From a virus (taxonomy: Duplodnaviria; Heunggongvirae; Uroviricota; Caudoviricetes), in the IMG/VR virus record IMGVR_UViG_2802429240_000004, positions 1 to 15,960 of that record: a stretch of 15,960 nucleotides of DNA. The stretch is one strand, 5' to 3'. Each line of letters opens with the position of its first letter. Position 1 is the stretch's first letter. The notes beneath the pieces were generated by a model, which saw only the letters and a list, made by a program, of their open reading frames with translations, did not search any database and was not told where the DNA came from. This document shows positions 1-14,217 of this stretch, one piece after another. Position numbers and translations under genes: made by a program.

Positions 1-754
1 TCAGTGAGATTTTTACGCACGACGGCGCATACATGACGGAGTAAAAACTTTTAACGTAGGTTCCGGAATCCAGATACAGCTCGGTCATTCCGCCGCTGTT
101 TTTCTGCGTCTGTTTCTGCCCTAACTGGACAGCACCGATCGTCATAAACAATTCACCACGGCGACCGAGATTCGTGTACGTATTCACATCCTCGTTAATG
201 CGCCCCATGAATGAGAACGGTCGATCAACCGAACAGATAAAACTGTTCATTGCCTTGCGTTTCACCCACGAAGCATGGCCGCCATTGTCACCAAGAAAAT
301 CCCCGCCCTGCGACATAGCGATGGAAAGCGCAGGTATTGATTCGTAGTACGCCAGCATTTCAGAAAGGATCGCATCCAGTTTTCTTATCGGAAAATAGGC
401 CTGGTCATAGTTGCGATCAACCCGAAACTGGAACTCGTGATAATCATCATCGAGCTGAATGAAGTATTTACACCCGACCAGTTTTGCCAGGTCGAAACAG
501 GCATTACGGGCGTAAAAAATTGAGCGGCGGTCACCGAAATTATCGGCTTCGTCAAAACGACTGGCGATATCGGCTTTGGAAAACACCAGCACCTGTTCAC
601 CAAATTCAGCTATGTACTGATGCCGTGTCTTATCTTCATCATCAACAACGATAAAAATTTTCCCGGTATAGCCAGCACGACGCAACGTCCGGTAAGTCAG
701 AACTTTGTCCGGTCGCCCGTGAGTCAGAATAAAGGCGCAAAAATCATCACGCAT
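1..754 (-). CDS. Hypothetical protein, 3'-truncated by the window edge (ATG at 754..752; reading frame runs off position 1)
   Basis: Manual minus-strand translation gives MRDDFCAFILTHGRPDKVLTYRTLRRAGYTGKIFIVVDDEDK...FIQLDDDYHEF... with no in-frame stop inside the window. Its ATG overlaps the stop of the upstream ParB-like gene (ATGCGTGATGA), suggesting translational coupling. The acidic VVDDED and LDDDY motifs are noted but no family is assigned. Confidence 0.5.
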   Translation of the reverse strand, partial: MRDDFCAFILTHGRPDKVLTYRTLRRAGYTGKIFIVVDDEDKTRHQYIAEFGEQVLVFSKADIASRFDEADNFGDRRSIFYARNACFDLAKLVGCKYFIQLDDDYHEFQFRVDRNYDQAYFPIRKLDAILSEMLAYYESIPALSIAMSQGGDFLGDNGGHASWVKRKAMNSFICSVDRPFSFMGRINEDVNTYTNLGRRGELFMTIGAVQLGQKQTQKNSGGMTELYLDSGTYVKSFYSVMYAPSCVKISL

Positions 755-1535
755 ATTCCTCCTCCCCGCCATGCATGATCTCCACCATGCGCTGCGTCAT
801 CCGGACAAATCCATTTTCAATAGCCTGCTGATAATCAATGATCACCAGCGCCGACTCCTCGAAAAGGCACTGAATTTCAGCGGGGGCGTGAGCGTAATAG
901 TCCGCAATTTTGCTGAAATTAAACACCGTGTGACGTTCTGCCGCACACAGGAGGAATTTCTCAATATCAGGATCAAGGGACGCCAAACGTATCCGGTTGA
1001 TCAGCTCCTGAGTTTTCGTATTGTCGTACAGTTCACTGATATCCGGTTTACCGCCCGACGGCTCATAAACAGGCGTATCAATTTTCGTCGTATATGGCTC
1101 CTCCTCATTTACTGTATCTGGCAAAACATCCGTCAACAGTTCATCAATTTCTGTCGGGCTGAAGCCTGTCAGGGAGACATCAAAATCAGCATTGATTAGG
1201 TCCGACAGCTCCATCCGTAACAGATCTTCATCCCAGCCAGCATTCATCGGCAGGCGATTATCTGCCAGGCGGTACGCCTTTTTCTGATCATCCGTCAGAC
1301 CAGACAGAATGATGACCGGAACAGAATCCATTTTGAGCACTTCAGCCGCCATAACGCGACCGTGACCAGCAATAATTTCGCCCTTTTCATCAATCAGCAC
1401 CGGATTAGTCCAGCCGAATTGCTTAATGCTTTCTACCAGTTGTGCCACCTGCTCAGGGCTGTGTGTCCTGGCATTGTGTGCATACGGAGACAGTTCTTGT
1501 AACGGGCGATAGACGATCTTCAATTTCTCGCTCAT
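747..1535 (-). CDS. ParB-like nuclease domain (ParB/sulfiredoxin fold) protein
   Basis: 262-aa ORF with GAGG about 5 nt upstream of the ATG. The N-terminal region VYRPLQELSPYAHNARTH...NPVLIDEKGEIIAGHGRVMAAEVL matches the ParB N-terminal domain pattern (..DGhHRl.A). The C-terminal half is acidic. Confidence 0.7.
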   Translation of the reverse strand: MSEKLKIVYRPLQELSPYAHNARTHSPEQVAQLVESIKQFGWTNPVLIDEKGEIIAGHGRVMAAEVLKMDSVPVIILSGLTDDQKKAYRLADNRLPMNAGWDEDLLRMELSDLINADFDVSLTGFSPTEIDELLTDVLPDTVNEEEPYTTKIDTPVYEPSGGKPDISELYDNTKTQELINRIRLASLDPDIEKFLLCAAERHTVFNFSKIADYYAHAPAEIQCLFEESALVIIDYQQAIENGFVRMTQRMVEIMHGGEEEYA

Positions 1536-1658
1536 ACAGCCTCGCTTTATGAATAAAAAAGCCCGCTATCGGCCAGTGCGCTGGGTGCGCGGCGGGTGCT
1601 GATAACGAGCTTTGACATTATCGCAGCCCCTCACACTGAAGGGCTGCTGTAATGCCTG

Positions 1659-1766
1659 TTACTCACGAATCAAACGAGCATGCTGACCACTCATTTCAAT
1701 GCGTAAGTATTGTGGCTTGCCGTCAATCAACGCGGTGATTAACTTGTCACCTGTAGGTTTCCACAT
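1659..1766 (-). CDS. Small hypothetical protein (35 aa) downstream of the lysis genes
   Basis: ORF MWKPTGDKLITALIDGKPQYLRIEMSGQHARLIRE, found by manual translation (below the ORF-track size cut-off). AGGAG lies 7 nt upstream of the ATG. No family recognised. Confidence 0.35.
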   Translation of the reverse strand: MWKPTGDKLITALIDGKPQYLRIEMSGQHARLIRE

Positions 1767-1939
1767 AATTTTCTCCTGTTTTAATGCCCCTTGCCGCCAG
1801 GCAGTTGATCAAAGTTCATCTTGATTCGGCAAGATTTAGAATGAATAAGATAAAATTGGCACACGCAGCAGAATTTCATGCTTTCCGGACGCTGGCGCAC
1901 CCTTCATTTTTCAGCAAAATATTCTGCTATTACAGGCGA

Positions 1940-2122
1940 TCAGTTCTGCATACACTGCCGAACACCGTCGACAATTTCACAGACCTGAGAAGCTGTATCG
2001 AAAAGCTGGCGCGCCTTATCCAGACTGACGCATCCCACCAGAAAAAAAGGCACCAGTATCGCTACCAGTGCCCATTTCGCCGCCGTTCGCGGCATTCTGT
2101 GTGTCCAGTGTTTTCTGCTCAT
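1940..2122 (-). CDS. Small lipoprotein (60 aa) with signal peptide and lipobox LVGC; lysis-associated or exclusion lipoprotein candidate
   Basis: Internal start of track ORF 1940..2194, placed just after the endolysin stop: MSRKHWTHRMPRTAAKWALVAILVPFFLVGC.... Basic n-region, hydrophobic core and L-V-G-C lipobox. The predicted mature part (about 29 aa, three Cys) is not proline-rich, unlike typical Rz1 o-spanins. Confidence 0.5.
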   Translation of the reverse strand: MSRKHWTHRMPRTAAKWALVAILVPFFLVGCVSLDKARQLFDTASQVCEIVDGVRQCMQN

Positions 2123-2136
2123 AACACACCTGGTTA

Positions 2137-2520
2137 TCAGCGTTTCAACTGAAAGTGAGGCCCGTCTTTCAGTGTTTTCCAGTCCCCGCCCCATTCGATG
2201 GCAGTTCCCAGCTCTGCGGCAGCCTGCTTAAATGCCTGCGCGATTTTCTCGTACAGAGGCCAGTCCCATGACACCTGGCTGCCAACCCAGGCAACAACAT
2301 CCACCGCATCACCGGTCAGGTGGCGGCTGTTCATGGTCTGGCTTTTCCCTTCCGCGACCAGCTGTTTCTGGCGTTCTTTCGTGCGCAGCCCTTCCGTAAT
2401 ACCGAAATCAACCTCCGTCAGCTCCAGCGCACGGCGAACGACAGCAACCAGCTGTGGTTTAACGCCCTCCAGATTCTTTTCGCTGCGACGACTAAATCTG
2501 AATTTACCCGACATATTCAC
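2137..2520 (-). CDS. Endolysin, peptidase M15 family (L-alanyl-D-glutamate peptidase / VanY-like)
   Basis: 127-aa ORF with metal-binding motifs SRHLTGDAVD and EWGGDW...DGPHFQL typical of M15 phage endolysins. No N-terminal transmembrane segment. Its start overlaps the stop of the upstream membrane-protein gene. Confidence 0.85.
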   Translation of the reverse strand: MNMSGKFRFSRRSEKNLEGVKPQLVAVVRRALELTEVDFGITEGLRTKERQKQLVAEGKSQTMNSRHLTGDAVDVVAWVGSQVSWDWPLYEKIAQAFKQAAAELGTAIEWGGDWKTLKDGPHFQLKR

Positions 2521-2792
2521 CTCAACAATGGAAAGATTTTTGTGACGTTCCCGCGTGCGCGTATCACCAGCACGCAGAACAGCAGGTTAAAAAACACTTC
2601 CAGCCAGCCCGTTGCTAACGGGCGACCACACAGATAGCTGAGGGGCGCAAAGGCATACAGCAGCATCAGCAGCCAGGCCAGCCATGACATCAGCGGTTTA
2701 TGTCTGGAATCACGGCGACGATAAAAAAAGAGCGTCAGCACGATAACCGTGCATAACACCACATTCAGCAATCCGGGAAGGTTACTTAACAT
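2517..2792 (-). CDS. Small membrane protein (91 aa, 2-3 predicted TM helices); holin/antiholin-like second lysis membrane protein
   Basis: Internal ATG of track ORF 2517..2846 (MLSNLPGLLNVVLCTVIVLTLFFYRRRDSRHKPLMSWLAWLLMLLYAF...). The start overlaps the upstream gene's stop (AATGTTAAGTAA) and the end overlaps the endolysin start, giving a translationally coupled lysis operon. Confidence 0.55.
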   Translation of the reverse strand: MLSNLPGLLNVVLCTVIVLTLFFYRRRDSRHKPLMSWLAWLLMLLYAFAPLSYLCGRPLATGWLEVFFNLLFCVLVIRARGNVTKIFPLLR

Positions 2793-3174
2793 TGCCGCCT
2801 CCTCCGCCCCGCAGGCGGGAGAACAGACCGGACACCAGTGATGCAATATCCTGCTGGTGGATGAATGACAGAATCTTCACCGACACTACCGCGACAAGCA
2901 CCGCGCACAGCGCATCTGCCGATGTACCGTCATAACCTGTTTTTGCCGCTATCCAGGCTGACAGCACACGCGCTCCCAGCACGCCAACAATGAACGACAC
3001 CAGAAAATGCGCCGCCACACGCCAGGCTGAAAGCTGCTGCGGCATCGTTGCCACAAACAACGCCCCGGCGAACGCACCAAACACAATCCCGAAATCCGTT
3101 CCGGTAAACAGCCCGAATACCGTCGCCCCACCGAGCGCCGCAGCCGTGCCGGAACCGGATAAGGGTTCAGACAT
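2782..3174 (-). CDS. Holin-like membrane protein (130 aa, 3-4 predicted TM helices)
   Basis: First gene after the tandem terminator hairpins, with AGGAG 9 nt upstream of the ATG. Gly/Ala-rich hydrophobic helices (AAALGGATVFGLFTG, FGIVFGAFAGALFVA, FLVSFIVGVLGARVL, LCAVLVAVVSV). Position upstream of the endolysin fits a holin. Confidence 0.6.
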   Translation of the reverse strand: MSEPLSGSGTAAALGGATVFGLFTGTDFGIVFGAFAGALFVATMPQQLSAWRVAAHFLVSFIVGVLGARVLSAWIAAKTGYDGTSADALCAVLVAVVSVKILSFIHQQDIASLVSGLFSRLRGGGGGNVK

Positions 3175-3191
3175 ACTTTTTTCTCCTGTAA

Positions 3192-3215
3192 ATAAAAAAG
3201 GGCCACTAGCGGCCC
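3192..3215 (-). terminator. Intrinsic terminator on the minus strand immediately upstream of the holin gene (tR'-like)
   Basis: GGGCC-actagc-GGCCC hairpin (3200-3215) followed on the minus strand by TTTTTTAT (plus 3192-3199). A second hairpin AAAGGCA-cctgcaga-TGCCTTT lies at 3234-3255. Confidence 0.5.
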
Positions 3216-3438
3216 GTAAAAAAACACCCCATCAAAGGCACCTGCAGATGCCTTTTGTGTGGTGTTATTTGATGTGCGCTGGGCGTGGCGCAGATATGAA
3301 AAAGGCCCGCCGTAGCGAGCCTCAGATTAAAGTGCGTGGGTAATTGCTCTCGTATTCATAGCGCTGTATTCACCACATACCCGGATTTTTGATATTGTTA
3401 AATCGCCAAAAGTAACAATGTCTCAAATGAGGTAAGAA

Positions 3439-3591
3439 ATGGGTCAGAATAACAAACCATTAGATGAAAATGACAAATCCAAGTCAGCTCCAAAGCCCAA
3501 ATCAACAGAGGAACCAAAGAAGGATCCTTTTTCCGTAGAGAGATTGGTCGTTGGTGATTCCTGGGGAGGTATCAGAAGAAAAAGTAAATAA
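3439..3591 (+). CDS. Small hydrophilic hypothetical protein (50 aa), convergent with the membrane-protein moron
   Basis: ORF MGQNNKPLDENDKSKSAPKPKSTEEPKKDPFSVERLVVGDSWGGIRRKSK found by manual translation. GAGGT lies 5 nt upstream of the ATG. AT-rich context; its 3' end overlaps the 3' end of the minus-strand gene by 20 nt. Confidence 0.3.
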   Translation: MGQNNKPLDENDKSKSAPKPKSTEEPKKDPFSVERLVVGDSWGGIRRKSK

Positions 3592-4141
3592 CAACAGAAA
3601 CCATTAATGAATAAACGGGGGCAAGGATAGCTGATATCCTTGCCTTCTCGAGTCCTTCTCTCAGTCTTTTATTTTCCTGCAATAATTCGTTTGCAGTTCT
3701 GCACAAAGCCATCAATCTGTACCTTCTCAATATGGACAAACGGCTGTCTTTCCCCGAAAAACCTCGCTCTTTAAACCTGGCGTAATCCATCGCAGTAATG
3801 CCCTTAATTGCCGGAGTGTACAGAATATCTGGCGACGCATGAATAATGGCACGCTTATGCACTTTCAGCACATTAACAACAAGGTACACAGCACAAATGG
3901 ACCAGTAAAAGACAAAAACAGCCAGTCCAGCGCCCAAAAAATCCAGATGAGTTTTTTGCGTTAATAGTAAAAATGATGAACCGATGCCAACTATCAGAAT
4001 GCTTAATAATTTATAGCCATTTTCCTTGTTGATGCTGTTTGAGCAATGGATTTCCCGAATGCACTCTTCTCCCTGTTTTTCAAGAAAATCAAGAATGTCA
4101 TCATCCGCATCAAGAAAATAGTCGCCGGGTAGATTTTTCAT
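3572..4141 (-). CDS. Membrane protein moron (189 aa; acidic N-terminal domain, two central TM helices, basic cytoplasmic domain, C-terminal TM helix)
   Basis: Track ORF 3572..4156 trimmed to the ATG preceded by GAAGGA (MKNLPGDYFLDADDDILDFLEKQGEEC...). Hydrophobic segments LLSILIVGIGSSFLLL, LGAGLAVFVFYWSICAVYLVVNVL and ISAILAPVYSLMVSVVIYFFF. Visibly AT-rich relative to flanking phage genes. Sits between the Q-like gene and the lysis cassette. Confidence 0.6.
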   Translation of the reverse strand: MKNLPGDYFLDADDDILDFLEKQGEECIREIHCSNSINKENGYKLLSILIVGIGSSFLLLTQKTHLDFLGAGLAVFVFYWSICAVYLVVNVLKVHKRAIIHASPDILYTPAIKGITAMDYARFKERGFSGKDSRLSILRRYRLMALCRTANELLQENKRLREGLEKARISAILAPVYSLMVSVVIYFFF

Positions 4142-4213
4142 TCCTTCACCAACCACGTAATCTGTAATACGCTCAATTTTACCTGAACGCCTGACGATGA
4201 AACACCATGTTCA

Positions 4214-4243
4214 CCAGAAACAACAAAACCCGCTCGATGGCGG
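4214..4243 (-). terminator. Terminator-like hairpin downstream of the Q-like gene (minus strand)
   Basis: CCCGC-tcgatg-GCGGG stem-loop (4228-4243) followed on the minus strand by TTTTGTTGTTT. Lies about 100 nt past the Q-like stop, where lambdoid phages place pR' and tR'. Confidence 0.4.
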
Positions 4244-4343
4244 GTTCTATTAAAGTTCAATTGCGCTTGGTTCGCCTCGCGATACAGCTTTGCGAAGCAT
4301 AGCTGAATTGAAGCAGTTTATTGGCAAAAATGCAATAACTTTT

Positions 4344-4886
4344 TTATTGGCTTTCTCCACATAACGCTAATTTCATTGGTATATACAGAATGTGTTCAGC
4401 AACACCCAACCATGCGTCAATGCGATTTCTGCAAGTTTTCAAGCTCCAGCCAGGGCGATACTTATTTAACTGTTGTGCCATTTTCAGCTTACTCATCCCC
4501 CGCCCTTCATATCTTTGTCGGAGGATAAAAATCAATCCAGGATGCTCTGCCATCACTTCACTAATTACCCGGTCAATACATAACGCCTCGGCATCAGTGC
4601 AATGGGACAGCCAGCTTTTTTGCTTACTGTCGATCATCTCACGCAAAAATGCTTCCAGCTCTGGCTTCTCTATTCCCGCTTTTTTCATTCTGCGCAGAGC
4701 TTCATTGATGGCTGTTTTCGTCAATTTTTTGGATGCCAGCAACTGGTTGAACATATTCCCCGTCTTACCGCCACCAATATACGACCAGCGCCCCCACATG
4801 CGCAGTTTTCCCTGAATCCAGACACTTTCCAGCGTGGTGAGACGAAGGTGTTCCCCGCTTTTGCCTGTATTTGTTGGGTAAATCAT
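4344..4886 (-). CDS. Putative late-gene antiterminator Q-like protein (180 aa)
   Basis: Internal ATG of track ORF 4344..5006, overlapping the upstream gene's stop (TTATGA). Positioned as the last gene before the late-promoter/lysis region. Contains an MWGRWS motif resembling the RWGxW motif I recall in Q82/QuuD-type antiterminators. Assignment is by position plus a weak motif only. Confidence 0.5.
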   Translation of the reverse strand: MIYPTNTGKSGEHLRLTTLESVWIQGKLRMWGRWSYIGGGKTGNMFNQLLASKKLTKTAINEALRRMKKAGIEKPELEAFLREMIDSKQKSWLSHCTDAEALCIDRVISEVMAEHPGLIFILRQRYEGRGMSKLKMAQQLNKYRPGWSLKTCRNRIDAWLGVAEHILYIPMKLALCGESQ

Positions 4887-5173
4887 AAATAACCTTCCTT
4901 TCTCCAGATTTCTTGTGTGCGAAAAACACCTTCTGCATGCATCAGGCGTAATTCTTCTTTGGTGTAATCGCTGGTTTTTACCCGCCCGTCGATTAAATCG
5001 TGGCACGAGCTACAGGCAATCGCTGCCTGCATATCGTGTGGCTTTATCGCTGTTCCGCACGTTCCCGCCAGTCGGTAATGCGCCAGCACAGACGTTTCCG
5101 GATCGTGATTGCAGTAGCCAGGAATTCTGACGGTGCACATCTGGCCTTTAGCCGCTTTACGTAAATCCACCAT
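4883..5173 (-). CDS. nin-region Cys-rich protein (DUF1364 / YbcO-like)
   Basis: 96-aa ORF MVDLRKAAKGQMCTVRIPGYCNHDPETSVLAHYRLAGTCGT...ACSSCHDLID, with the conserved Cys/His pattern I recall for DLP12 YbcO-family proteins. Start overlaps the upstream stop (TAATG). Confidence 0.7.
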   Translation of the reverse strand: MVDLRKAAKGQMCTVRIPGYCNHDPETSVLAHYRLAGTCGTAIKPHDMQAAIACSSCHDLIDGRVKTSDYTKEELRLMHAEGVFRTQEIWRKEGYL

Positions 5174-5772
5174 TACGCAAACTCCAGTAGTTGTGCAGCC
5201 ACATTTTCGACTTCCTCCGGAGAGGAGAATTTACGGAACAGAATCCAGTTCCACAGTACGTTGAGTACTGCTTTATAAACCTGCTGAAACTCGGTTTCGT
5301 CCATATTCGCAAAAGCGATGGATTTCGCCCTGCGCCCACGGCTACCATCCGGATAAAAATGCTCGGTGTAAAATCCGGCCTGAATGGTTACCCACTCGCG
5401 GAAAGCCTCAAACGACTTTAGCAATGCCGTATCCTGGGTTCTGCGTGTCGCAACTGTATTCAGATATTGCTCTGCGGCTTCGCTCAGAGCTGGCGTATGT
5501 TCCCGGCCTACTGATTCACACAGGTAATCAACGAATCCTGAAACCAGTTTTCGTTCGCGAGGAGTGATCGCCCCACCGACCGGAGTCCAGTAATCGAATC
5601 CGAGTTGCAGAAGTTTGAAAAAACGCTTATGGAATGCGTAGTTACGTACACGCTTAAAGTCTGCGTGTACCCACTCACCTATTTTGATTTGATGCAAAAA
5701 ATCGCAACTCTCCGGCGTCGCCGGGAGAAGTAATCCGGAAGAGGTTTGTTTGACCAGTTGTATATGTGCCAT
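5173..5772 (-). CDS. nin-region protein (DUF1367-like)
   Basis: 199-aa ORF with GGAGAAA about 5 nt upstream of the ATG. Family assignment is from memory of lambdoid nin-region proteins and is not verified. Confidence 0.6.
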   Translation of the reverse strand: MAHIQLVKQTSSGLLLPATPESCDFLHQIKIGEWVHADFKRVRNYAFHKRFFKLLQLGFDYWTPVGGAITPRERKLVSGFVDYLCESVGREHTPALSEAAEQYLNTVATRRTQDTALLKSFEAFREWVTIQAGFYTEHFYPDGSRGRRAKSIAFANMDETEFQQVYKAVLNVLWNWILFRKFSSPEEVENVAAQLLEFA

Positions 5773-5838
5773 CGGCTTTCTCCGGTGGCACGGTGTTACT
5801 CAGCAGGAGTTCAATCCTGCTCAAGATTGTAGATGAGT

Positions 5839-6099
5839 TTATTCTTCAGCAAAAGCAGAAAAACCAGCCTTAAAACCAATCTCTTTCAAAACCCCTAATG
5901 ATGTGACAAATTCGTCCTCACGCAAAATAAAACCGTCCGTCAGAAGTCCATTACAAAAATAAAATAACGCAGCTCCACTCTTCCTTTGTTGAGACTGTAA
6001 ACATTTAATACGGCAGTGACTGACAATAGCGCCATTCTCAACGCGCACAGTATAGAGGCCATTTTCACTAAAAATTTCACGCAATTCTTCGATTTTCAT
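5839..6099 (-). CDS. Hypothetical protein (86 aa) between the hok locus and the nin genes
   Basis: ORF MKIEELREIFSENGLYTVRVENGAIVSHCRIKCLQ... with GGAAGGA 9 nt upstream of the ATG (the track starts 3 nt earlier at a TTG). Occupies the position of rem next to hokD in the E. coli Qin prophage; no sequence-level claim is made. Confidence 0.5.
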   Translation of the reverse strand: MKIEELREIFSENGLYTVRVENGAIVSHCRIKCLQSQQRKSGAALFYFCNGLLTDGFILREDEFVTSLGVLKEIGFKAGFSAFAEE

Positions 6100-6220
6100 C
6101 AACAGAATCCTTCCAGATAAATAGCACTCCCCTGTTCGGGGTCCATCCCTCTTCTCCCTGCGCGCTACTTAAGTATTTTTGATTCTATTCCGGCACTATC
6201 CAAAACTTCAAACGCGTTGA

Positions 6221-6250
6221 AAATAAAAACAAAAACCCGCCGAAGCGGGT
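6221..6250 (-). terminator. Intrinsic terminator of the hok mRNA (minus strand)
   Basis: ACCCGC-cgaa-GCGGGT hairpin (6235-6250) followed on the minus strand by TTTTGTTTTTATTT. Preceded by the imperfect palindrome GGCGGGAGATTTCTCCCCCGCC (6291-6312), typical of folded hok mRNA 3' ends. Confidence 0.5.
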
Positions 6251-6319
6251 TAAGTGTGGGTGCATTGAGGATGCCTGACACATCAGAGGTGGCGGGAGAT
6301 TTCTCCCCCGCCAGGTCTC

Positions 6320-6472
6320 TTACTCCTCAGGTTCGTAAGCTGTGAAGACAGCGACCTCCGTCTGGCCGGTTCGGATTCGTACCTCGCAGAGGTCTTTCCT
6401 CGTTACCAGTGCCGTCACTATGACGGTTAAACAGATGACGCTCAGGGCGATTAACATCGTCTTTTGCTGCAT
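6320..6472 (-). CDS. hok: Hok/Gef-family type I toxin (small membrane peptide)
   Basis: Manual translation gives MQQKTMLIALSVICLTVIVTALVTRKDLCEVRIRTGQTEVAVFTAYEPEE (below the ORF-track size cut-off). Single TM helix and conserved Cys; nearly identical to my recollection of E. coli HokD/RelF. An in-frame GTG lies one codon upstream. Followed by a strong terminator. Confidence 0.8.
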   Translation of the reverse strand: MQQKTMLIALSVICLTVIVTALVTRKDLCEVRIRTGQTEVAVFTAYEPEE

Positions 6473-6620
6473 CACAGCCTACTTACCCTTACCTTTCGTT
6501 CAAGCGGTAAGGTCACTTTTTCTGTTGTGTGCTAACCAATAAACCTCTTTTATCTGCATTAAAATTCGCTATCATGTCATCCTCAACCTGTTAATAGCCT
6601 ATTATGGACTTTAGTAAACA

Positions 6621-8450
6621 ATGAGCACTTCCGCATACAAGAGCAAAATTCGAACACTCCAGTGCGCGTTAAAAAACGGTGAATTTGAACCATTCATACA
6701 ACATATCCGTTTTCCATACTTTAAAAATATAGAGCAGAATGCAAGGATCGATTTTCAGTTCCCTATAACGGCTTTAGTAGGAAAAAATGGAACTAATAAA
6801 AGTTCTGTTATCAAAGCGCTATTTGGTTGCCCACATGGTAAAAATATAACTCGTTATTGGTTCACAACTGAAACAGATGAGTTTCCTGACCTAAAACTTG
6901 CTGATGGCAGTTCTCTTAAGCCTAGATATATATATGGATATAAAAATGCTGATGGCCGTTTAGTTGAAATACTCCAAGCGCGTATCAATGCTACCAAGAA
7001 AACAATCGATTATTGGGAAACAAGTCGACCATCTGTTGGTGATAACATGGAGAGCATTTCGGATGATCTGGGTGCTAATAGTAATGCAACCAGATGGAAA
7101 AAAATCAAGAAGGGATTGGTTTTCCTAGATTTCAGATCGGAAATAAGTGCATTTGATAGATGTATGTATCACTCTGATCCTAAATTAAGAAAGAAGAAGA
7201 GTGGTGTATTAATTACAAAGCAAGACTATATCAGAAGCAAATCTAAATATATAAAAAAAGCTTTTGATGAAAAGCTAAGTAATTTAAGACTTTGGGGGAC
7301 GGAAACCATTGTTAAAAATATAACCTTGGCGCCAGAACTAGTTGAGCACGTCTCATTTATATTAGGGAAAAAATATAAAGTCATTAAATTTCTTGAGCAT
7401 CGGTTATTTGGAACCAAAGGAGGAACCGTTTTACTTTCAACTGATAAGTTGAACTATACAGAAGCTTTTGCTGGAAGTGGTGAATTTGCAATAGTTTCAC
7501 TAATACTCAATATTTATTCGGCCAAACCTAATTCATTAATTCTTCTTGACGAACCAGAAGTTTCACTTCACCCTGGTGCACAGAAAAGGATGATGGATGT
7601 TCTGTACTCTATTGTTGAGCAGAAAAAACATCAAGTGGTAATATCAACCCATTCTCCTGTTATTGTGAACACTCTTCCCAAAGATGCCATTAAATTATTT
7701 GTTTTTGATGAAGAAAGTGAAACAGCTAAAATAGTTCAAAATATAGCACCGGATGAAGCTTTTATAGAGCTAGGGCATGATATTAACAAGAAAACAATAA
7801 TTGTAGAAGATAAATTAGCTAAAGCAATTATAGATAAAGCGATTAAAAATGATGAAAGATTAAGCTTATCATTTAGTGTAAGTTATATACCAGGTGGTTC
7901 GGAGACCATTTTAAGCAAGCATCTTCCCAGTTACGCTGTGGTAGAACGCAATGATATTTTGTTTTTACTTGATGGTGATAAGAACAAAAAAATAAAACCA
8001 GTAAGAATTAGTGAAATTGCTGATGCTGATTTAGTTAATACAATGTGCAAATATTATGGTTGCGAGTTAATTATCAATGCCAGTGGTAGTAATGGCAAAA
8101 AAAATGAACAAGAATCTAATAGACTCAAAAGGCAAGTGCTTGAGTATGCATTCAATAAAGTGCAGTATTTACCATTTGATACTCCCGAACAATTACTCAT
8201 TGAAAAGGCAATTACGCCAAGTGAAAAAGAAATAATTGATTCACAGACCTGGAGTTCTGATGATCCAGAACTGTATAAGAATCAAATAAGATTATTAGCG
8301 CAACACCTGTATGATAAAGAAGAAGTAAATGCAGAGGAAATTTTTTGCCTCCAACAAATAATGACCGCAAGACTTAAAAATGAATTGCCTGAATTTATAA
8401 AAATAAGAAAAATAATTACTCAGGCTCTTGACCGTGGTATCATTAGGTAG
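6621..8450 (+). CDS. OLD-family ABC-type ATPase with C-terminal TOPRIM-like nuclease domain (609 aa)
   Basis: Walker A GKNGTNKSS, signature-like AGSGEF, Walker B SLILLDEPEVSLHP, H-loop VISTHSP. The C-terminal region has a TOPRIM-like glutamate (TIIVEDKLAKAII) and DxD (LFLLDGDKN). Strongly AT-rich; opposite strand to the surrounding phage genes. Confidence 0.75.
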   Translation: MSTSAYKSKIRTLQCALKNGEFEPFIQHIRFPYFKNIEQNARIDFQFPITALVGKNGTNKSSVIKALFGCPHGKNITRYWFTTETDEFPDLKLADGSSLKPRYIYGYKNADGRLVEILQARINATKKTIDYWETSRPSVGDNMESISDDLGANSNATRWKKIKKGLVFLDFRSEISAFDRCMYHSDPKLRKKKSGVLITKQDYIRSKSKYIKKAFDEKLSNLRLWGTETIVKNITLAPELVEHVSFILGKKYKVIKFLEHRLFGTKGGTVLLSTDKLNYTEAFAGSGEFAIVSLILNIYSAKPNSLILLDEPEVSLHPGAQKRMMDVLYSIVEQKKHQVVISTHSPVIVNTLPKDAIKLFVFDEESETAKIVQNIAPDEAFIELGHDINKKTIIVEDKLAKAIIDKAIKNDERLSLSFSVSYIPGGSETILSKHLPSYAVVERNDILFLLDGDKNKKIKPVRISEIADADLVNTMCKYYGCELIINASGSNGKKNEQESNRLKRQVLEYAFNKVQYLPFDTPEQLLIEKAITPSEKEIIDSQTWSSDDPELYKNQIRLLAQHLYDKEEVNAEEIFCLQQIMTARLKNELPEFIKIRKIITQALDRGIIR

Positions 8451-8473
8451 TGATTCTGGATGCAGAGGGAAAA

Positions 8474-9514
8474 ATGAAAAAAATCAAAGTGTTTGACTTC
8501 TTTTCCGGTTGTGGTGGAACCAGCCAAGGTTTCCATCAAGCTGGAATGGATATTGTTTTTGGCCTCGATTTCGACGTTGATGCAGCCAGTTCATTTCGTG
8601 CAAATTTCCCGCAGGCTGCTTTTATTAACTCGGACATTAGGTTAATCGACAACAATGCCATAAACAAGTTAGTAAAAAAACATCGTAATGATTACATTCT
8701 TTTTTCAGGATGTGCGCCTTGTCAACCGTACTCTAAGCAAAACTCAAATAAAAAAAATGATGATCCACGATTAGATCTATTAAAGGAATTCAGTCGTTTT
8801 GTAGAGCATTATATGCCTGATTTTATTTTTGTTGAAAACGTGCCTGGAATGCAAAAGTTTAACAAAAATGAAGGAACATTCATGATGTTTTTAGAAATGC
8901 TTTCATCAAAGGGATATAGTGTAGATTATAAAGTAATGCCAGCTGCGTGGTACGGTGTACCACAGACGCGAGAAAGATTAGTGCTCATTGCATCCAAGGA
9001 TTTTTATGTCGCATTGCCTTCTCCTACACATGGGGTTGGAAATACTCCCTATTCAACAGTAAAGGACTGGATCGCTAATTTACCGAAGATAGAGGCAGGA
9101 GAAAAGCATAATAGTATTCCTGATCATGAAGCTGCACGCTTATCAGAGCTTAATTTACGTAGAATAAAATGCACTCCTGAAGGTGGAAGTCGAGAATTTT
9201 GGCCAGATGAATTGATTTTAGAATGCCATCGTAACCATAAAGGGCATACAGACGTATATGGACGTTTGAGTTGGGACAAACCAGCCAGCGGACTAACAAC
9301 TCGTTGTATTAGCTATTCAAATGGACGTTTTGGACATCCAACACAAAATCGAGCAATATCGGTTCGTGAAGCAGCGTGTCTACAAACATTTCCTTTGGAT
9401 TATAAATTTATTGGTTCTTTGCAATCTCGGGCTCGTCAAATAGGAAATGCGGTCCCTCCGAAGATGTCTGAAACGATTGGAAAACATTTGCTTAATATAA
9501 TCAAAGCCTCCTAG
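8474..9514 (+). CDS. DNA (cytosine-5)-methyltransferase
   Basis: Motif I FDFFSGCGG, motif IV catalytic GCAPCQPYS, motif VI ENV, motif VIII QTRERLVLIA, motif X IGNAVPP; variable region between VIII and IX. GAGGGA precedes the ATG at 8474; alternatively starts at the GTG at 8450 overlapping the upstream TAG. Operon with the ATPase gene. Confidence 0.85.
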   Translation: MKKIKVFDFFSGCGGTSQGFHQAGMDIVFGLDFDVDAASSFRANFPQAAFINSDIRLIDNNAINKLVKKHRNDYILFSGCAPCQPYSKQNSNKKNDDPRLDLLKEFSRFVEHYMPDFIFVENVPGMQKFNKNEGTFMMFLEMLSSKGYSVDYKVMPAAWYGVPQTRERLVLIASKDFYVALPSPTHGVGNTPYSTVKDWIANLPKIEAGEKHNSIPDHEAARLSELNLRRIKCTPEGGSREFWPDELILECHRNHKGHTDVYGRLSWDKPASGLTTRCISYSNGRFGHPTQNRAISVREAACLQTFPLDYKFIGSLQSRARQIGNAVPPKMSETIGKHLLNIIKAS

Positions 9515-9530
9515 GAGGCTTTATTTTATT
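9501..9530 (+). terminator. Perfect 20-bp palindrome plus T-tract terminating the ATPase-methyltransferase operon (probably bidirectional)
   Basis: AAAGCCTCCTAGGAGGCTTT is identical to its reverse complement and contains the methyltransferase TAG stop; it is followed by TTATTTTATT. Confidence 0.55.
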
Positions 9531-9545
9531 GTTATCCCCTAGTAT

Positions 9546-9977
9546 TTAATCGTGCTCACCAGACAACCTCCTGAAATTACTCTGGTAAAATGCCAGTACA
9601 CGCTGCATAACTTCGCTTTTCCGGCACTCGCGACAGATTATGTTCTGACGCCTGTCGTGGCGGCGTATTTCTCCGTCTGGTAATGACCAGATAAGGTCAG
9701 GATCAACCACAACCGGTTTCTTCGTCTTTGCCCTTGATAGTTTTTTGCGGGCGTTTTGCCAGTCTTTACGCGCCTGCTCAGACGGGAATAATCCGTAGCC
9801 AGAATTGTAAACATCACCACTGGCGACCAGTTCTCTGGCGAGAGTGCTTATGTAATACCTTGATGCACCGGTTTTAGCCTCCAGAGCCCGTAACGTCTCG
9901 CGACCGCTCAGACGTACAAGTTCAACAACCTGCCCTTTAATTTTTTCCCGCTCTTCTGGTGTAAATACTTTTGCCAT
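9546..9977 (-). CDS. Hypothetical phage protein (143 aa)
   Basis: ATG with GGAGG 5 nt upstream (the track ORF starts 15 nt earlier at a TTG). Contains ICRECRK near the C-terminus. No family assigned. Confidence 0.55.
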   Translation of the reverse strand: MAKVFTPEEREKIKGQVVELVRLSGRETLRALEAKTGASRYYISTLARELVASGDVYNSGYGLFPSEQARKDWQNARKKLSRAKTKKPVVVDPDLIWSLPDGEIRRHDRRQNIICRECRKSEVMQRVLAFYQSNFRRLSGEHD

Positions 9978-9992
9978 AGGTGCCTCCGGCAA

Positions 9993-10754
9993 TCACTTTT
10001 CCGATGCAACATGGCGGGAAGAATCAGTAATCTGTCGTACAATATCCCTGTGCTTGTTCAGCTCCCGCAGCGCGGAGCAGACACGCTCCCACTTCTGGAC
10101 ATGATTTTTCGCCCGACGCAGTTCGCGGTTTGCCAGATGCAGCGATGGTAAAATCAGGTCATCGGCTCGCGTTGCAGTAAACGATGGCAACGACTGCACA
10201 ATGTCCGCCACAGTTTCTGTTTTAATTTCTTCCTGTATTGCAGCTTCCGGCGCTGGTAACGCAACATCTGCTGGCTGAGGAAAGGCTTTACCATCATTTC
10301 CCGTTACCGATGCGGCTTTCGGCTCTGCTGGTAAATTATCGTCCGGCATGCAGTAACGAAATTTACCGTTCTGATTTACACGAATCAGACGCCCTTTGCT
10401 GATTGCCATTGCCAGCGTTGAAGCTACTTTGCGTGATGTGGTACCGAACAATGTAGCCAACTCATCAGCCGTTTGTGGTCCGCGTTGTTCAATCGTCGCG
10501 GTTAAATCGCTCTCTGAGATTTTCGCTACTGTCGCCGTGGTGGTTTCTTCCGGCTGTTCTTCTGGCGCTGGCTGTTCCTGCTGAACGTTGTTATCAGCCA
10601 CACGCCAGGTGTATACGCTTTTATCAACGAAGCCAGCCTTTTTCAGTTCCCACAGCTCGTTCAGAACTTCTTCACGACTGATATCAAGTCGCGCAGCCAG
10701 TTCTACCGACGTGGCTTTTCCCATTGCTTTCAGTGCATCAAAAACGGTTTCCAT
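9993..10754 (-). CDS. Hypothetical phage protein (253 aa) with N-terminal winged-helix-like segment and acidic Pro/Glu-rich linker
   Basis: Internal ATG of track ORF 9993..10820 with GGGAGGA 8 nt upstream. [43 protein letters not shown] resembles a wHTH; followed by low-complexity [16 protein letters not shown]. Confidence 0.55.
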
Positions 10755-10788
10755 TAAAATTTCCTCCCGGTAAAAATTACTTCTCAAC

Positions 10789-11454
10789 TCAAACAAACCC
10801 AGCCGCTTTCCGGCGTTCATATTCCTGTTTCAGCAACTCAATTGGAGTTGGCCCCGACGGGCGTTTTGGTGCTACCAGTTGCCGCCGGACGGGCGGAACG
10901 CTGAAGCCGTCACCAACATGCTTTGCCCATTTCGCTAGTTGCCGTTCTGCAAGTCGTTTTAACTCCCCTTCGGTCATCTGACGCTCAATCCCTTTTGCCC
11001 GCATCTCGAGGCAAATGTGATACAGCACGGGCTGAGACCACGGGTATTTATCGCTCCCGTCGTATCGCCAGGACTCGTTGCGCCAGCGGCGGTACTCCTC
11101 CATCACGGCATCCACAGTCAAACCAAACGGATTTGCCCCACTTTCCGAAATCAACGCCACAAACTCAGCCAGGTCAGGAGGCCATGTTTCACCCGCCCGA
11201 CAACGCTCCATGCACTGGCGGCAGACCTGCCGGATTTGCTGCTCAGTCATCGCGCCAATCTGTGCAATCCAGAGCTTCGAAGGTGCGGCCCCGTTCTTCT
11301 GGGTCCAGCGGTTCGAATAAACCTCCCCCATGAGTTCCCACAGCTTCCACGCCGTTTCCGTCGCTGATAAATCCGTTTTCACGTTCCCACTGCTCACGTG
11401 CTGCCCGAATTTCCTGAACTGCCCGTGATGCGGTGCCACCTGGCGTTGCTGCAT
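10789..11454 (-). CDS. Replication protein P-like (helicase loader)
   Basis: Alignable by eye to lambda P: [40 protein letters not shown] versus lambda YPWKSNAHYWLVTNLYQNMRANALTDAELRRKAADELVHM; also [12 protein letters not shown] versus TTMEQVNAGMRVARRQ. AAGGGGGTGA lies upstream of the ATG at 11454. Confidence 0.7.
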
Positions 11455-12367
11455 GGTTCACCCCCTTGCTGACTGGTTTAACCTGCGCCCTGACGTGATT
11501 TACGTGACGGGCGAATTTCTGCTCCCACTGAACCTGCGTGAACACTTTGCCCTCCGCTGCCCAGTAGTCCCGGAAGGCGGCAAGTTCAGCTGGTGTAAAT
11601 TCCGGCTCAGGAAGAGCCACGCCCCACAGCGCAGCCCGTCGTCGAAAATCCGGCGACGGATGCCAGCCATCGGTCATCGGAAATTTCCCGATGGGTTCGC
11701 TCAGGCCTTCCAGGTAATCAGGTTCCGCTGTCTGCAACGGCACGCCATTTGCCTCACTGGCCGGAGCACTCTCGCGCACGCGCGCGTTATGTGTGGGGTT
11801 TATATATCTGTTATCTGTTATCTGGATACCGCATGACAAAGCGTTAGCCTTATCCTTAGGCTTATCCTCAGGCAAAGGGATTGCCTTATCGAATGCCATC
11901 CCCAAAGCCTCAGAAACCCCGTAGGACGCGGCTCTCAGCGATTCCCTGGCCTCCCATTTGAGAGGGCAATCAGGAATTAAAGCGAATGCCTTTGCCCAGG
12001 ATTTAATGACATTTATCGAGTTTGGCGGATTGTGTTTCGCAGCATTCGGGAGCCAAAAAACTCTGGCTTTGATATCTGCTTTCACCATGCCAAGATTCAT
12101 GGCTTCGCCTAAGGCTAAGTCAAAGGCTTCGATATCCCACCCCAACTCTTCAGCCATTGCTGCCCGCCCGGCTTTAAACAACCCAGGAATAATCCCGGTA
12201 AATGGACTGGTCAGCAGATAAATAAACAAACTCTGTCCACTTGGAGGCAGAGGAGATAACGCCCTAAATTTGGGATCATCCCATATCGTTATTTTTACCT
12301 TGCGATAAGGCTCATTGTTTGCCTTAGTTTTTGGCATGGGATTTGGCATGTTTTTAGCCTTAACCAT
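11243..12367 (-). CDS. Replication initiator O-like protein with DnaT-like C-terminal domain
   Basis: Internal ATG (GAGG 6 nt upstream) of track ORF 11243..12421. The C-terminal segment [61 protein letters not shown] matches E. coli DnaT ([29 protein letters not shown]...[20 protein letters not shown]). Its last ~70 codons overlap the P-like gene in another frame. Confidence 0.7.
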   Translation of the reverse strand: [374 protein letters not shown]

Positions 12368-12446
12368 AATTGCCTCATCTGGTGTCGAACCTTCCTCCGG
12401 ATATAATCTGTGATTCCCCAATCAACAGAACCAAAGGAGGTTCGAC

Positions 12447-12902
12447 ATGTCTTTAATGGCTGTTTGCCAAAAAATTAAAAATCACATGCGCACTGTGTAC
12501 AAAATTAACCAGCACGACCACGACATGGTTAACCTGGTAACATGCAGGGCTATAGTTCTCACCCGCTTCCATCTACTTCTTACAAATCACTCACGAGATT
12601 CTCTCCTGAGTCCCAGTAACTATGATTCGCTGGCGAGATTGCTATACCAGGCAAGTGAAAAACGTATTACTGATCCCTTATCTGTTTCTCCTGTCCTTGC
12701 TCTTCACATTCTGGAAGACGCTCTCTATGACCCCCATCAGGAATGCGACTATCAATTTCTTGAAGCTGAGAAATCAATGAGAGAATGGTTCGTTGAATAT
12801 CACGAACGGCAGCAAAAGTTATCCTCAAAGTATTCAGAACTTCCGCAACTTCGCTGGAGTGACCTTCCGAACGAATTATTTGCTCTGACCCCAGAAAATT
12901 AA
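12447..12902 (+). CDS. Hypothetical protein (151 aa), AT-rich, antisense to the early-right operon; conflicts with 12667..13080
   Basis: Strong RBS AAAGGAGG 6 nt before the ATG and a perfect TATAAT hexamer about 40 nt upstream (12402-12407). Globular-looking sequence. Overlaps the minus-strand ORF by 236 nt, so at most one of the two is likely real over that stretch. Confidence 0.4.
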   Translation: MSLMAVCQKIKNHMRTVYKINQHDHDMVNLVTCRAIVLTRFHLLLTNHSRDSLLSPSNYDSLARLLYQASEKRITDPLSVSPVLALHILEDALYDPHQECDYQFLEAEKSMREWFVEYHERQQKLSSKYSELPQLRWSDLPNELFALTPEN

Positions 12903-13080
12903 TTCTTGGGGATAAATCGTCCATAACTGAGCGCAGGCTAAGTTCTGCGCTCTGAAGCTTCCGAACCGAAGTTTCTGTACCCCAACCCGCAATTTCTGCA
13001 TTTTTTGCAAGTTTCAGGATCCAGTCTCGTAGTTCGCCGGGAGTAAGATTTCCAGCATTGATAAACGGTTTGATTTTCAT
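12667..13080 (-). CDS. Hypothetical protein (137 aa) following the YdaT-like gene; conflicts with 12447..12902
   Basis: ATG 20 nt after the YdaT-like stop with a weak RBS. The N-terminal 59 codons lie in unique sequence; the remainder overlaps the plus-strand ORF. Confidence 0.3.
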   Translation of the reverse strand: MKIKPFINAGNLTPGELRDWILKLAKNAEIAGWGTETSVRKLQSAELSLRSVMDDLSPRINFLGSEQIIRSEGHSSEVAEVLNTLRITFAAVRDIQRTILSLISQLQEIDSRIPDGGHRERLPECEEQGQEKQIRDQ

Positions 13081-13099
13081 TGTTAGTTACCCTATTCAC

Positions 13100-13522
13100 T
13101 TAATGAACAACAGCAGAATCGTCGGACGACCCACCACCGCTGAAATGCGCTTTCCGGTAAACGGCTTGGACTGCATCATCATGCGCATCAATTGCCGTAC
13201 TCAACGCTTCCTGCGCCGCCAGTAATGCACGGCGTTCCAGGGTATCGAAGATGCTGAATCGGTGGCGCAGCTCGCGCGGAAGGATTGCCAGAATTGCAGG
13301 GATCAGTTTCTGAATTTTTTCCCTTTGCGCTTCCGTTTCACCTTTCAACCAGCGGTGATAGATATTCTGCTGATTGTTCCAGTCCTTGCCTGGTACCAGG
13401 GGTAATTCGCCGCCCCCCTGGCGCAGATATTCTTCAGTAATTGCGTTAGCGACCCACGCCTGCCCTTTTTCGGCTGCCAGGGCTAACAGCACTGATTCGA
13501 TGTGCTCATGCCTGATTTTCAT
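13100..13522 (-). CDS. YdaT-like protein (CII-like regulator family of Rac-type prophages)
   Basis: 140-aa ORF directly after the Cro-like gene (17-nt overlap), AAGGTGA upstream. Begins MKIRHEHI and ends AVVH, matching my recollection of E. coli YdaT; family call by memory and position. Confidence 0.6.
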   Translation of the reverse strand: MKIRHEHIESVLLALAAEKGQAWVANAITEEYLRQGGGELPLVPGKDWNNQQNIYHRWLKGETEAQREKIQKLIPAILAILPRELRHRFSIFDTLERRALLAAQEALSTAIDAHDDAVQAVYRKAHFSGGGSSDDSAVVH

Positions 13523-13733
13523 GAATCACCTTCCCTGCTCGCTTTGCCTTACGATATTCGTCATAAACGTTGGGGTCGTACTGAAGCTCCCCGCCGGATG
13601 CCTCCTGCAGGCGCATCGCGCGGCCTTCAGGAACCAGTTCCCCCCATGCAGCAATGCTTGCCAGCCTCACCCCTGCAGCATTCGCGAGCTTCGTTTTGCT
13701 GCCAAAAAAAGCTATAGCATCGGTTTTCAACAT
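13506..13733 (-). CDS. Cro-like HTH regulator
   Basis: 75-aa ORF divergent from the repressor, AAGGAG 6 nt upstream. DAIAFFGSKTKLANAAGVRLASIAAWGELVPEGRAMRLQEASGGELQYDPNVY parallels lambda Cro ([26 protein letters not shown]...INADGSVYAEEVKPF). Confidence 0.7.
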   Translation of the reverse strand: MLKTDAIAFFGSKTKLANAAGVRLASIAAWGELVPEGRAMRLQEASGGELQYDPNVYDEYRKAKRAGKVIHENQA

Positions 13734-13809
13734 ATCGAACTCCTTAGATTTTCCTAAGTAAACTAGATTGTAGAGAAACCTAAGTCAAGAAAAATTAGAA
13801 TTACCTAAT
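13734..13809. promoter_or_regulatory. OR-like divergent promoter/operator region between the Cro-like and repressor genes
   Basis: Contains CTTAG-attttc-CTAAG (13744-13759) and further CCTAAG/CCTAAT copies (13779-13784, 13804-13809). The repressor ATG has no Shine-Dalgarno and a TAGAAT hexamer sits about 9 nt upstream, suggesting a leaderless transcript as for lambda cI from pRM. Confidence 0.55.
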
Positions 13810-14217
13810 ATGAAAAACGAAACCTTCGGTGCCCGCCTCTTACACAGGCGTAAAAAATTAAAACTGTCCCAGGCCGCATTAGGTAAGCTGGTCAAAGTGG
13901 CTCACGTAACAATTTCTCAGTGGGAAAGGGATGAAACACAGCCTGCGGGGAAGAGATTATTCGCGCTGAGTCAGGCACTTCAGTGCTCACCGACCTGGCT
14001 TCTTTTTGGGGATGAAGATAAGCAACCAGGCGAACCGATCCCGGCGAACCAACCAACCAATCTGACAGAAGAGCAAAAAGAGTTACTTCAACTGTTCGAC
14101 GCACTGCCTGAATCAGAGCAAAAAGCTCAATTGTCAGAGATGCGTGCCAGAGTTGAGAATTTCAACAAACTTTTTGAAGAACTACTCAAAGCTCGCAAAA
14201 GAAGCACAAATAAATAA
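13810..14217 (+). CDS. Prophage repressor, HTH_XRE family without peptidase domain (DicA/RacR-like)
   Basis: 135-aa ORF; N-terminal LSQAALGKLVKVAHVTISQWERDETQPAGKRLFALSQALQCSPTWLLFG is a canonical XRE/cI-type HTH. Flanked on both sides by CTTAG-type operator repeats. Confidence 0.8.
   Translation: MKNETFGARLLHRRKKLKLSQAALGKLVKVAHVTISQWERDETQPAGKRLFALSQALQCSPTWLLFGDEDKQPGEPIPANQPTNLTEEQKELLQLFDALPESEQKAQLSEMRARVENFNKLFEELLKARKRSTNK

Follow-up and report, generated by a model that had tools for sequence, protein, structure and literature searches.

A mobile cassette of two convergent, overlapping genes at the Q-to-lysis site of an Escherichia coli lambdoid prophage, and its possible role as a membrane effector with a small disordered partner

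Type I toxin-antitoxin (TA) pairs of prophages, such as txpA/RatA and bsrG/SR4, are laid out convergently with overlapping 3' ends, and lambda rexA/rexB and other exclusion membrane proteins are prophage-borne, non-essential and located at moron sites, the term moron being used here in the Juhala/Hendrix sense of an accessory cassette of lambdoid phages. In prophages of Staphylococcus aureus the accessory gene tha is overlapped in antisense by a small protein-coding gene, ith, which inhibits it, and Tha itself is a soluble HEPN RNase (Rostol et al. 2024, PMC11087260). The Tai/Ati genes of phi80 form an immune/counter-immune pair in the Q-dependent late region, with one gene antisense, in a noncontiguous operon (PMC11364771). 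Here we describe a gene pair, termed X and Y, in a 15,960-nucleotide stretch of DNA (positions 1 to 15,960 of IMG/VR virus record IMGVR_UViG_2802429240_000004; hereafter the window), which comes from a lambdoid prophage of Escherichia coli whose late genes are read from the minus strand. X (3572-4141, minus strand) encodes a predicted inner-membrane protein of 189 aa and Y (3439-3591, plus strand) a 50-aa hydrophilic, Pro/Lys-rich protein predicted to be disordered; the two genes converge, and their coding sequences share 20 nt at their 3' ends (3572-3591). Both genes are real, under selection, strictly co-inherited and mobile as a unit, and the data support the view that window positions 3302-4215 are a self-contained accessory cassette, or moron, made of two convergent, 3'-overlapping transcription units. 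We tentatively favor the reading that this moron combines a membrane effector with a small disordered inhibitor or regulator and that the two are coupled by antisense transcription.

By analogy, X-Y resembles both the Tha/Ith and the Tai/Ati prophage defence arrangements, each of which is established by experiment, and it departs from each in specific ways. The geometry shared with Tha/Ith is that of a small coding gene overlapping a larger one in antisense, and in one distantly related locus (L124) the resemblance goes further, the X-like gene being placed, like tha, downstream of a CI-type repressor gene and read in the same direction. The larger proteins themselves are unlike, however: against the soluble HEPN RNase Tha stands X, a helical membrane protein with three transmembrane (TM) segments and neither a HEPN nor any other known domain; a Pfam scan, together with the all-helical membrane character of X, gave no homology of X or Y to Tha (HEPN) or Ith. 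The setting differs too, X lying in the late operon of the window whereas tha lies in the repressor operon. Tai/Ati shares with X-Y its place among the Q-dependent late genes of a lambdoid phage and the presence of one gene antisense to late transcription, but the roles are reversed: in Tai/Ati the antisense gene encodes the larger defence protein and the late-oriented gene the small antidote. That pair also lies upstream of the packaging genes, and its proteins are unrelated to X and Y and are not membrane proteins. As for rexA/rexB, the X-Y pair of L124 occupies a rex-like position downstream of the repressor, but the rex genes have no sequence or PHROG relationship to the X family and a different gene layout.

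The reality of Y, a short open reading frame (ORF) that is left out of some annotations (several loci had no gene called there), is established by its pattern of substitution. Nei-Gojobori counts were made on the part of Y that does not overlap X and read where synonymous sites are unsaturated. In five such pairs of alleles the proportions of synonymous and nonsynonymous differences (pS/pN) were 0.36/0.03, 0.38/0.01, 0.51/0.05, 0.65/0.03 and 0.65/0.12, giving dN/dS ratios of 0.02-0.09, and X in the same pairs falls in the same regime. Y is a genuine protein-coding gene under purifying selection, and for this reason we reject the idea that it is a mere antisense RNA or 3' untranslated region (UTR). 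Its ATG stands 5 nt downstream of a Shine-Dalgarno (SD) sequence, GAGGT (3429-3433, plus strand); nearly all alleles have a GGAG, AGGA or GAGG motif 5-9 nt from the ATG, and in L005 a GAAGGA lies farther upstream. Alleles diverge by in-frame indels and retain the family pattern MSQxNKP...KPQP...(D)F(S/T/A)x.R..VGDS....(R/K)K.K, including a conserved C-terminal motif, FSV.R..VGDS....RKKSK. Homologues of Y form 62 clusters in the same taxa as those of X and Y has a PHROG match, while Pfam, NCBIfam and PADLOC scans returned no match for it. Modeling of Y alone with AlphaFold2 (AF2) gave a predicted local distance difference test score (pLDDT) of 62 and no secondary structure. A reader impressed by the shortness and low complexity of the ORF and by its lack of a Pfam family might still hold that Y is not a gene and that the region is no more than the 3' UTR of X or an antisense RNA that encodes nothing. 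We regard this as highly improbable, as pS far exceeds pN in the frame of Y (e.g. 0.38 versus 0.01), indels keep the frame, the start codon and SD are conserved, a PHROG family and 62 protein clusters exist, and equivalent ORFs occur in relatives whose GC content ranges from 45 to 63%. The selection, SD, start-codon and indel data thus contradict it.

The sequence-only reading had offered the small ORF as a possible partner of X, and the association turned out to be stronger than was proposed. Among 108 loci with an intact X, drawn from genomes, assemblies and 80 IMG/VR contigs, at least 105 have Y as a convergent ORF of 47-64 aa whose overlap with the 3' end of X measures 15-32 nt; lengths of 20, 23, 26 and 32 nt occur among the enterobacterial alleles other than that of the window. 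The three exceptions are a frameshift, an ambiguous base at the start codon, and a Y that was missed by the search pattern. Conversely, X was convergent in each Y homologue context examined, and Y is missing from all three loci in which X has decayed. X and Y are therefore essentially an obligate pair.

That the pair behaves as variable cargo, as had been supposed from its place between the Q-like gene and the lysis genes, is seen by comparison with a sibling prophage in E. coli M8. Homology between the two prophages ends at window position 3301 and restarts at 4216: the M8 prophage shares the Q gene and the hairpin that follows it (4216-4999, 98.7% identity) and also the holin side (2701-3301, with 88% identity in the holins), but in place of 3302-4215 it has genes for tRNA-Thr and tRNA-Gly (L128 4123-4276). 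Because two tRNA genes occupy the same site in the sibling, the segment, comprising X, Y and their signals, can be regarded as a swappable cassette. The prophages of E. coli U90 and HNSQ2209, two pig isolates, carry the same cassette at 98% identity among further morons. In these prophages, as at the U90 site (L001 5286-7625), and in the pPE4 phage record described below, an ORF6N gene lies upstream of X-Y and TerB and DUF3927 genes downstream; HNSQ2209 additionally has an IS66 insertion that separates ORF6N from X. These moron combinations, and the rarity of the cassette described below, agree with its being cargo. Its composition had been described as more AT-rich than that of both flanks. 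The GC content is 0.415 for the cassette, 0.404 for X and 0.399 for Y, compared with 0.59 and 0.54 for the two holins, 0.56 for the endolysin and 0.457 for the Q-like gene, so the difference is clear against the lysis genes (0.54-0.59) and only modest against Q. As in a moron, then, the cassette is absent from the site in a close relative, has a deviant GC content and brings its own terminators.

The allele found in the window is present in only 2 of 5426 complete E. coli genomes, while a divergent allele, whose X is 54% identical, occurs in ~220-280 of the 5426 (~4-5%), with both genes annotated as hypothetical. Only 5 of 50,697 phage records encode X, and one IMG/VR contig (L031) encodes an X identical to the product in the window. 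The family also occurs in Klebsiella, Citrobacter, Salmonella, Serratia, Yersinia, Proteus and Providencia, and it is confined to prophages in the 80 IMG/VR viral contigs and in all genome contexts seen. Wherever the neighbors in enterobacterial contexts are annotated, X-Y lies between an antiterminator and the lysis genes. The backbones around it nevertheless vary, with three antiterminator families (DUF1133, PF03589 and PF06530), at least five holin families, and different endolysin types, replication genes and terminases. One of the records carrying the cassette is that of 'Actinobacillus phage vB_Apl-pPE4' (L003, PP818812.1), where it is ~98% identical to E. coli prophage DNA. The gene order in this record is also that of E. 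coli prophages over the 13-kb region fetched; since both sequence and gene order match E. coli prophages, the stated Actinobacillus host looks doubtful.

The ORF containing X (3572-4156, minus strand) would specify 194 aa if counted from its GTG, but all homologues agree on a conserved ATG at 4141, which gives a 189-aa product beginning MKNLPGDYFLDADDDILDFLEKQGEEC. An acidic N-terminus, two central TM helices, a basic cytoplasmic segment and a C-terminal TM helix had been read from the sequence, and this architecture is borne out by hydropathy, charge and structural modeling, as is that of the convergent hydrophilic ORF with its GAGGT site and 20-nt overlap. Hydropathy windows and the AF2 model place the TM helices of X at residues 43-62, 68-92 and 169-189, and the net charge is -7 for residues 1-42 and +10 for the loop 93-168. 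By the positive-inside rule, the N-terminus and this loop would be cytoplasmic, with a short periplasmic turn between the first two helices and a periplasmic C-terminus. The AF2 model, computed with 50 homologues as input (pLDDT 86, predicted TM-score 0.70), consists of three long antiparallel helices at 14-62, 68-92 and 134-188, and in this model one end of the bundle is probably embedded in the membrane while the opposite end forms a charged cytoplasmic stalk.

The earlier statement that X could not be assigned to a family also stands. Its sole family match is PHROG 11870 (function unknown; E 1e-75). There are zero matches in Pfam, NCBIfam and PADLOC; PDB sequence searches were empty with both the single protein and the profile as query. 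The Pfam and PHROG scans matched no holin or antiholin family, and no signal peptide or enzyme, transporter or adhesin signature was seen. A word-indexed search collected homologues in 141 clusters at 90% identity from across the Enterobacterales, nearly all of exactly 189 aa and uniformly annotated as 'hypothetical', whereas an exhaustive profile search of 1.84 billion representatives yielded only 95 clusters of the family but extended it to relatives of 155-200 aa with 20-30% identity. All 63 family members tested match PHROG 11870, one of them with an additional marginal match to phrog_24541 (E 0.00089). In the same PHROG comparison none of the 63 matches an annotated superinfection-exclusion family (SieA/SieB, Imm, HK97 gp15 or RexB), and 63 distant relatives compared with Pfam gave sub-threshold noise only. 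The literature searched under the PHROG number, the RefSeq accession and the phage name pPE4 yielded nothing.

The distant relatives are informative as to which associations of X are old. At 22-28% identity, relatives of X are found in other prophages within early or immunity regions and not at the Q-to-lysis site: among early-left recombination genes and in opposite orientation in L111 and L115, at the end of an AlpA-type operon in L114, and next to the CI-type repressor in L124, which belongs to the clade of family member P0146. All of them retain a small convergent ORF, rich in Pro, Gln and Lys, that overlaps the 3' end of the X-like gene, here by 29-89 nt. In a GC-rich clade this ORF has 29-36 aa and the motif ..P.(I/V)PQP.P(E/S)RR..., which is kept across genomes of 45-63% GC, and in the AT-rich P0146 clade it has 53 aa. 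Since the layout persists at other locations, X-Y is an ancient self-contained unit whose link to lysis is specific to one clade. The small partners of the GC-rich clade, for example MSQPNQPVIPQPAPERRE... (L111 6446-6535, minus strand) and MKVNNEPYIPAQPQPERRE... (L123 649-738, minus strand), recall the PVYIPQPRP core of apidaecin-type proline-rich peptides, which is probably a coincidence of composition.

These observations bear on what we consider the chief rival, a late-phase accessory role in which X, made off the Q-dependent late transcript just ahead of the holins, modulates the timing of lysis or shields the infected cell at a late stage, for instance against superinfecting phages or re-injecting progeny; X would then be antiholin- or holin-helper-like, and Y would silence leaky X in the lysogen. 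In each enterobacterial locus examined, X directly follows an antiterminator and a tR'-like hairpin, precedes a holin and is co-oriented with the late genes, whichever of the three antiterminator families and five or more holin families is present. Seven alleles, moreover, lack a -10-like element of their own, and in at least one of them (L073) the terminator hairpin nearly abuts the SD of X. However, the distant X-Y members in early and immunity regions are far from lysis genes and still have the convergent ORF, which weakens a lysis-specific role; the partner holins are unrelated to each other, which makes a specific X-holin interaction unlikely; X resembles no holin or antiholin family; and a gene of purely late expression would have no need of the late-strand terminator with which the cassette ends. 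We therefore think a late-phase role rather unlikely.

The signals within and around the cassette suggest how the two genes may be coupled. About 27 nt past the stop codon of Y, within the coding sequence of X, lies a 13-bp hairpin (3618-3646, plus strand), in the part that encodes ..ARI.xIL.P at the start of the third TM helix. It is found in 32 of 32 distinct alleles, with z values of -1.3 to -6, and in an alignment of 20 sequences 94.6% of cells are paired as against 45-59% in slid controls, with compensatory changes at five pairs. G-U pairs are frequent on the Y strand, where the X strand would have A-C mismatches, and a T-run follows the hairpin in several alleles. Taken together, these features make it probable that the hairpin is the intrinsic terminator of the Y transcript, embedded in the coding sequence of its partner. 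On the other strand, a terminator scan found an intrinsic terminator that closes the cassette (3302-3323, minus strand), with an equivalent A-tract and hairpin in other alleles; because this late-strand terminator sits at 3323-3302, the X transcript is antisense to the whole of Y. Two further late-strand structures belong to the phage backbone. One is a terminator-like, tR'-like hairpin in the interval between Q and X (4221-4252, minus strand), outside the cassette, which is common (98.7%) to the M8 prophage that is without X-Y; every allele has a comparable hairpin ahead of X, with TTTCTGG after it. The other is a second terminator just upstream of the holin gene (3200-3215, minus strand), in the block common to M8.

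Convergent genes with overlapping ends in a prophage also recall an addiction module without a defence function, in which X would be a membrane toxin and the Y protein, its antisense transcript or both would be the antidote, the pair being kept because cells that lose the cassette or the prophage die. The layout is that of txpA/RatA and bsrG/SR4, with one membrane-protein partner and a prophage location, both genes are lost together in degraded loci, and the prophage has a Hok-type toxin gene as well. Type I toxins are, however, peptides of <60 aa whereas X has 189 aa and a large structured cytoplasmic part, and type I antitoxins are non-coding antisense RNAs whereas Y is a conserved protein under purifying selection. 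X is also decaying in three loci, which indicates that its loss is tolerated. We consider an addiction module distinctly unlikely, and as a type I TA system in the strict sense we reject X-Y, as Y is protein-coding, X is too large, and only the convergent 3' overlap is common to both.

The candidate promoters are less clear than the terminators. Upstream of X, a -10-like hexamer, TAAAAT (4176-4181, minus strand), lies inside the conserved ATTCAGGTAAAAT and is a candidate X promoter by its conservation among alleles: in the window it lies 35-40 nt ahead of the start codon, and 21 of 32 alleles have TAAAAT or TAAGAT at a distance of 34-40 nt from theirs, although no -35 element was recognised upstream of X, and a similar element, ACATTAAAAT, precedes the gene of the distant relative in L124. 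Directly upstream of the SD of Y, a 30-nt non-coding element, TTGATATTGTTAAATCGCCAAAAGTAACAA (3389-3418, plus strand), is kept in ~28 of the 32 distinct alleles despite saturated synonymous sites in the genes, so that it is conserved more than either coding sequence, and it is probably the promoter or operator of Y. It includes TCGTTAAATC, which resembles the H-NS nucleation motif, and an AACCACA box. Reading the element as -35/-10, sigma-E, sigma-28, sigma-54, IHF or DnaA boxes gave nothing convincing. A search of the window against Rfam returned no family at the gathering threshold and, near the cassette, only chance-level matches to STnc370 and STnc100 (E 0.6-1.8); a small-RNA reading of the 30-nt element, hairpin and terminator thus found no supporting family match.

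Two side observations concern these signals. In most alleles a second hairpin (window 3340-3385, plus strand, and equivalents) lies in the stretch that separates the 30-nt element from the late-strand terminator. Its arms covary (GCCGC/GCGGC versus GCCAGA/TCTGGC), and some of its G-U pairs could form on the Y strand alone; of all alleles, that of the window shows it least clearly. In L124 (5700-5800, minus strand) two copies of the box TAACCACAACTTATAA are found around a perfect TTGTTA-17-TATAAT promoter, an arrangement suggestive of an operator.

Expression of the cassette from the late promoter, as the sequence-only reading had assumed, fits these data in part. X shares the direction of the late operon, but a terminator stands at the end of the cassette and another upstream of it in the backbone, the cassette in most alleles brings its own conserved -10-like element, and Y is read against the direction of late transcription.

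A possible lead to the function of X comes through P0146, which was placed in the X family by the exhaustive profile search (E 3e-21). This protein matches the PADLOC profile for PycTM (PDLC02364) over residues 17-182, nearly its full length (E 1.5e-8), and the profile for the CBASS 2TM effector (PDLC00700; E 4e-5), and a second member of the family has a marginal PycTM match. The assembly index lists Pfam PycTM for P0146, unlike our own scan, in which the match was below threshold. PycTM and 2TM effectors, like X, have ~160-190 aa and a helical TM-hairpin architecture, and the profile matches are consistent with X working like a small TM effector. Unlike in Pycsar and CBASS, the partner of X is a small disordered protein and not a cyclase, and among ~40 annotated loci no cyclase or CD-NTase gene adjoins a member of the X family. 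As P0146 is AT-rich and of low complexity, X of the window has no match and no pyrimidine cyclase (PycC) is nearby, we do not file X as a Pycsar effector. A bolder proposal is that X-Y represents an unrecognised and widespread prophage immunity system of Proteobacteria, with a membrane-disrupting, PycTM/2TM-like effector that operates without cyclic-nucleotide signalling, is restrained by the small proline-rich, disordered Y and is controlled by an antisense switch, so that the activity of the neighboring phage operons would arm or disarm it; we deem this unlikely, if worth stating.

In the reading that we favor, of a membrane effector and its small inhibitor or regulator, X would act at the membrane, either blocking the entry of competing phages or collapsing membrane integrity in the manner of an abortive-infection protein or toxin, and Y would be its cognate inhibitor or regulator. 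Since the X transcript covers the whole of Y in antisense and the Y transcript would terminate within X, each gene may be suppressed when the other is transcribed, and the cassette would act as a switch. Strong transcription from the X side would turn Y off and leave X dominant; its source would be Q-antiterminated late transcription here, and repressor-operon or early transcription in the distant relatives. This scheme presumes that X resides in the membrane with the topology given above, that X and Y would interact physically, that one or the other of the two genes would be on in the lysogen and that a defence or toxicity phenotype would result. Lysogenic conversion, superinfection exclusion and abortive infection are all plausible functions of the pair, and the view of X as a membrane effector in defence has gained some indirect support.

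Several points weigh against this scheme. In the enterobacterial clade the orientation of X is that of the late operon, and lytic growth of its own prophage should therefore bring abundant X; this would be unexpected of a suicide effector and agrees with a role in the late phase. The position between Q and holin, strict in >100 enterobacterial loci, could reflect a link to lysis. The -10-like element is absent upstream of X in 7 of 32 alleles, and a simple promoter scan of 3100-4500 found no sigma-70 consensus site for either gene. Fold searches with X retrieved generic long-helix bundles only. The PycTM link runs through a single AT-rich, low-complexity member, P0146, which scores 16.1 bits on Pfam PF18967 (PycTM) compared with a gathering score of 27.2, and X itself matches no PADLOC defence model, including PycTM.

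The same moron could instead encode a lysogenic-conversion membrane protein that alters the physiology of the host (stress tolerance, transport or envelope), with Y as its regulator. The classic moron site, the AT-richness and the terminator of the cassette agree with this, as do the TerB- and DUF3927-type genes that neighbor it as morons in related phages. It is made improbable by the absence from X of a signal peptide or of an enzyme, transporter or adhesin signature, by the restriction of the family to prophages, and by the obligate small antisense partner, which is more typical of a function that needs an off-switch.

The genes around the cassette are those expected from the initial description, with X-Y having the Q-like gene on one side and the holins on the other. 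The former (4344-5006, minus strand) encodes a DUF1133/antitermination-Q-like protein with a weak antitermination-Q signature in the family scan. Downstream of X-Y, the same scan identified the holins Phage_holin_8 (2782-3174) and Phage_holin_3_7 (2517-2846) and, beyond them, an M15 endolysin (2137-2520). Directly after the endolysin, an 84-aa ORF (1940-2194, minus strand) has a lipobox-like LVGC behind a hydrophobic stretch and is a candidate spanin component. Elsewhere in the window, a 51-aa ORF, MMQQKTMLIALSVICLTVIVTALVTRKDLCEVRIRTGQTEVAVFTAYEPEE (6320-6475, minus strand), resembles the Hok/Gef type I toxins and sits where related prophages have an annotated hokD. An AT-rich island (6621-9514, plus strand; GC 0.33-0.38) on the strand opposite to the phage genes encodes a 609-aa ABC-ATPase/Toprim protein similar to OLD, AriA, PtuA and GajA, with HEC-04 as its best PADLOC match (E 8e-35), as well as a C5 cytosine methyltransferase of 354 aa (MTase_II, E 1e-96). 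This island probably represents another piece of defence cargo carried by the prophage.

Prophage morons are a main reservoir of anti-phage and host-modifying functions, and the X family has been wholly unannotated among them. An effector, an inhibitor and an antisense switch make a proposal that is cheaply testable, and the pairing of X with Y holds down to ~22% identity and at different prophage locations. With its putative terminator inside the coding sequence of X, Y would place that segment under a dual constraint, on coding and on structure. If the proposed mechanism is true, the principle of a small antisense inhibitor, as in Tha/Ith, would extend to phages of Gram-negative bacteria and to a membrane effector.

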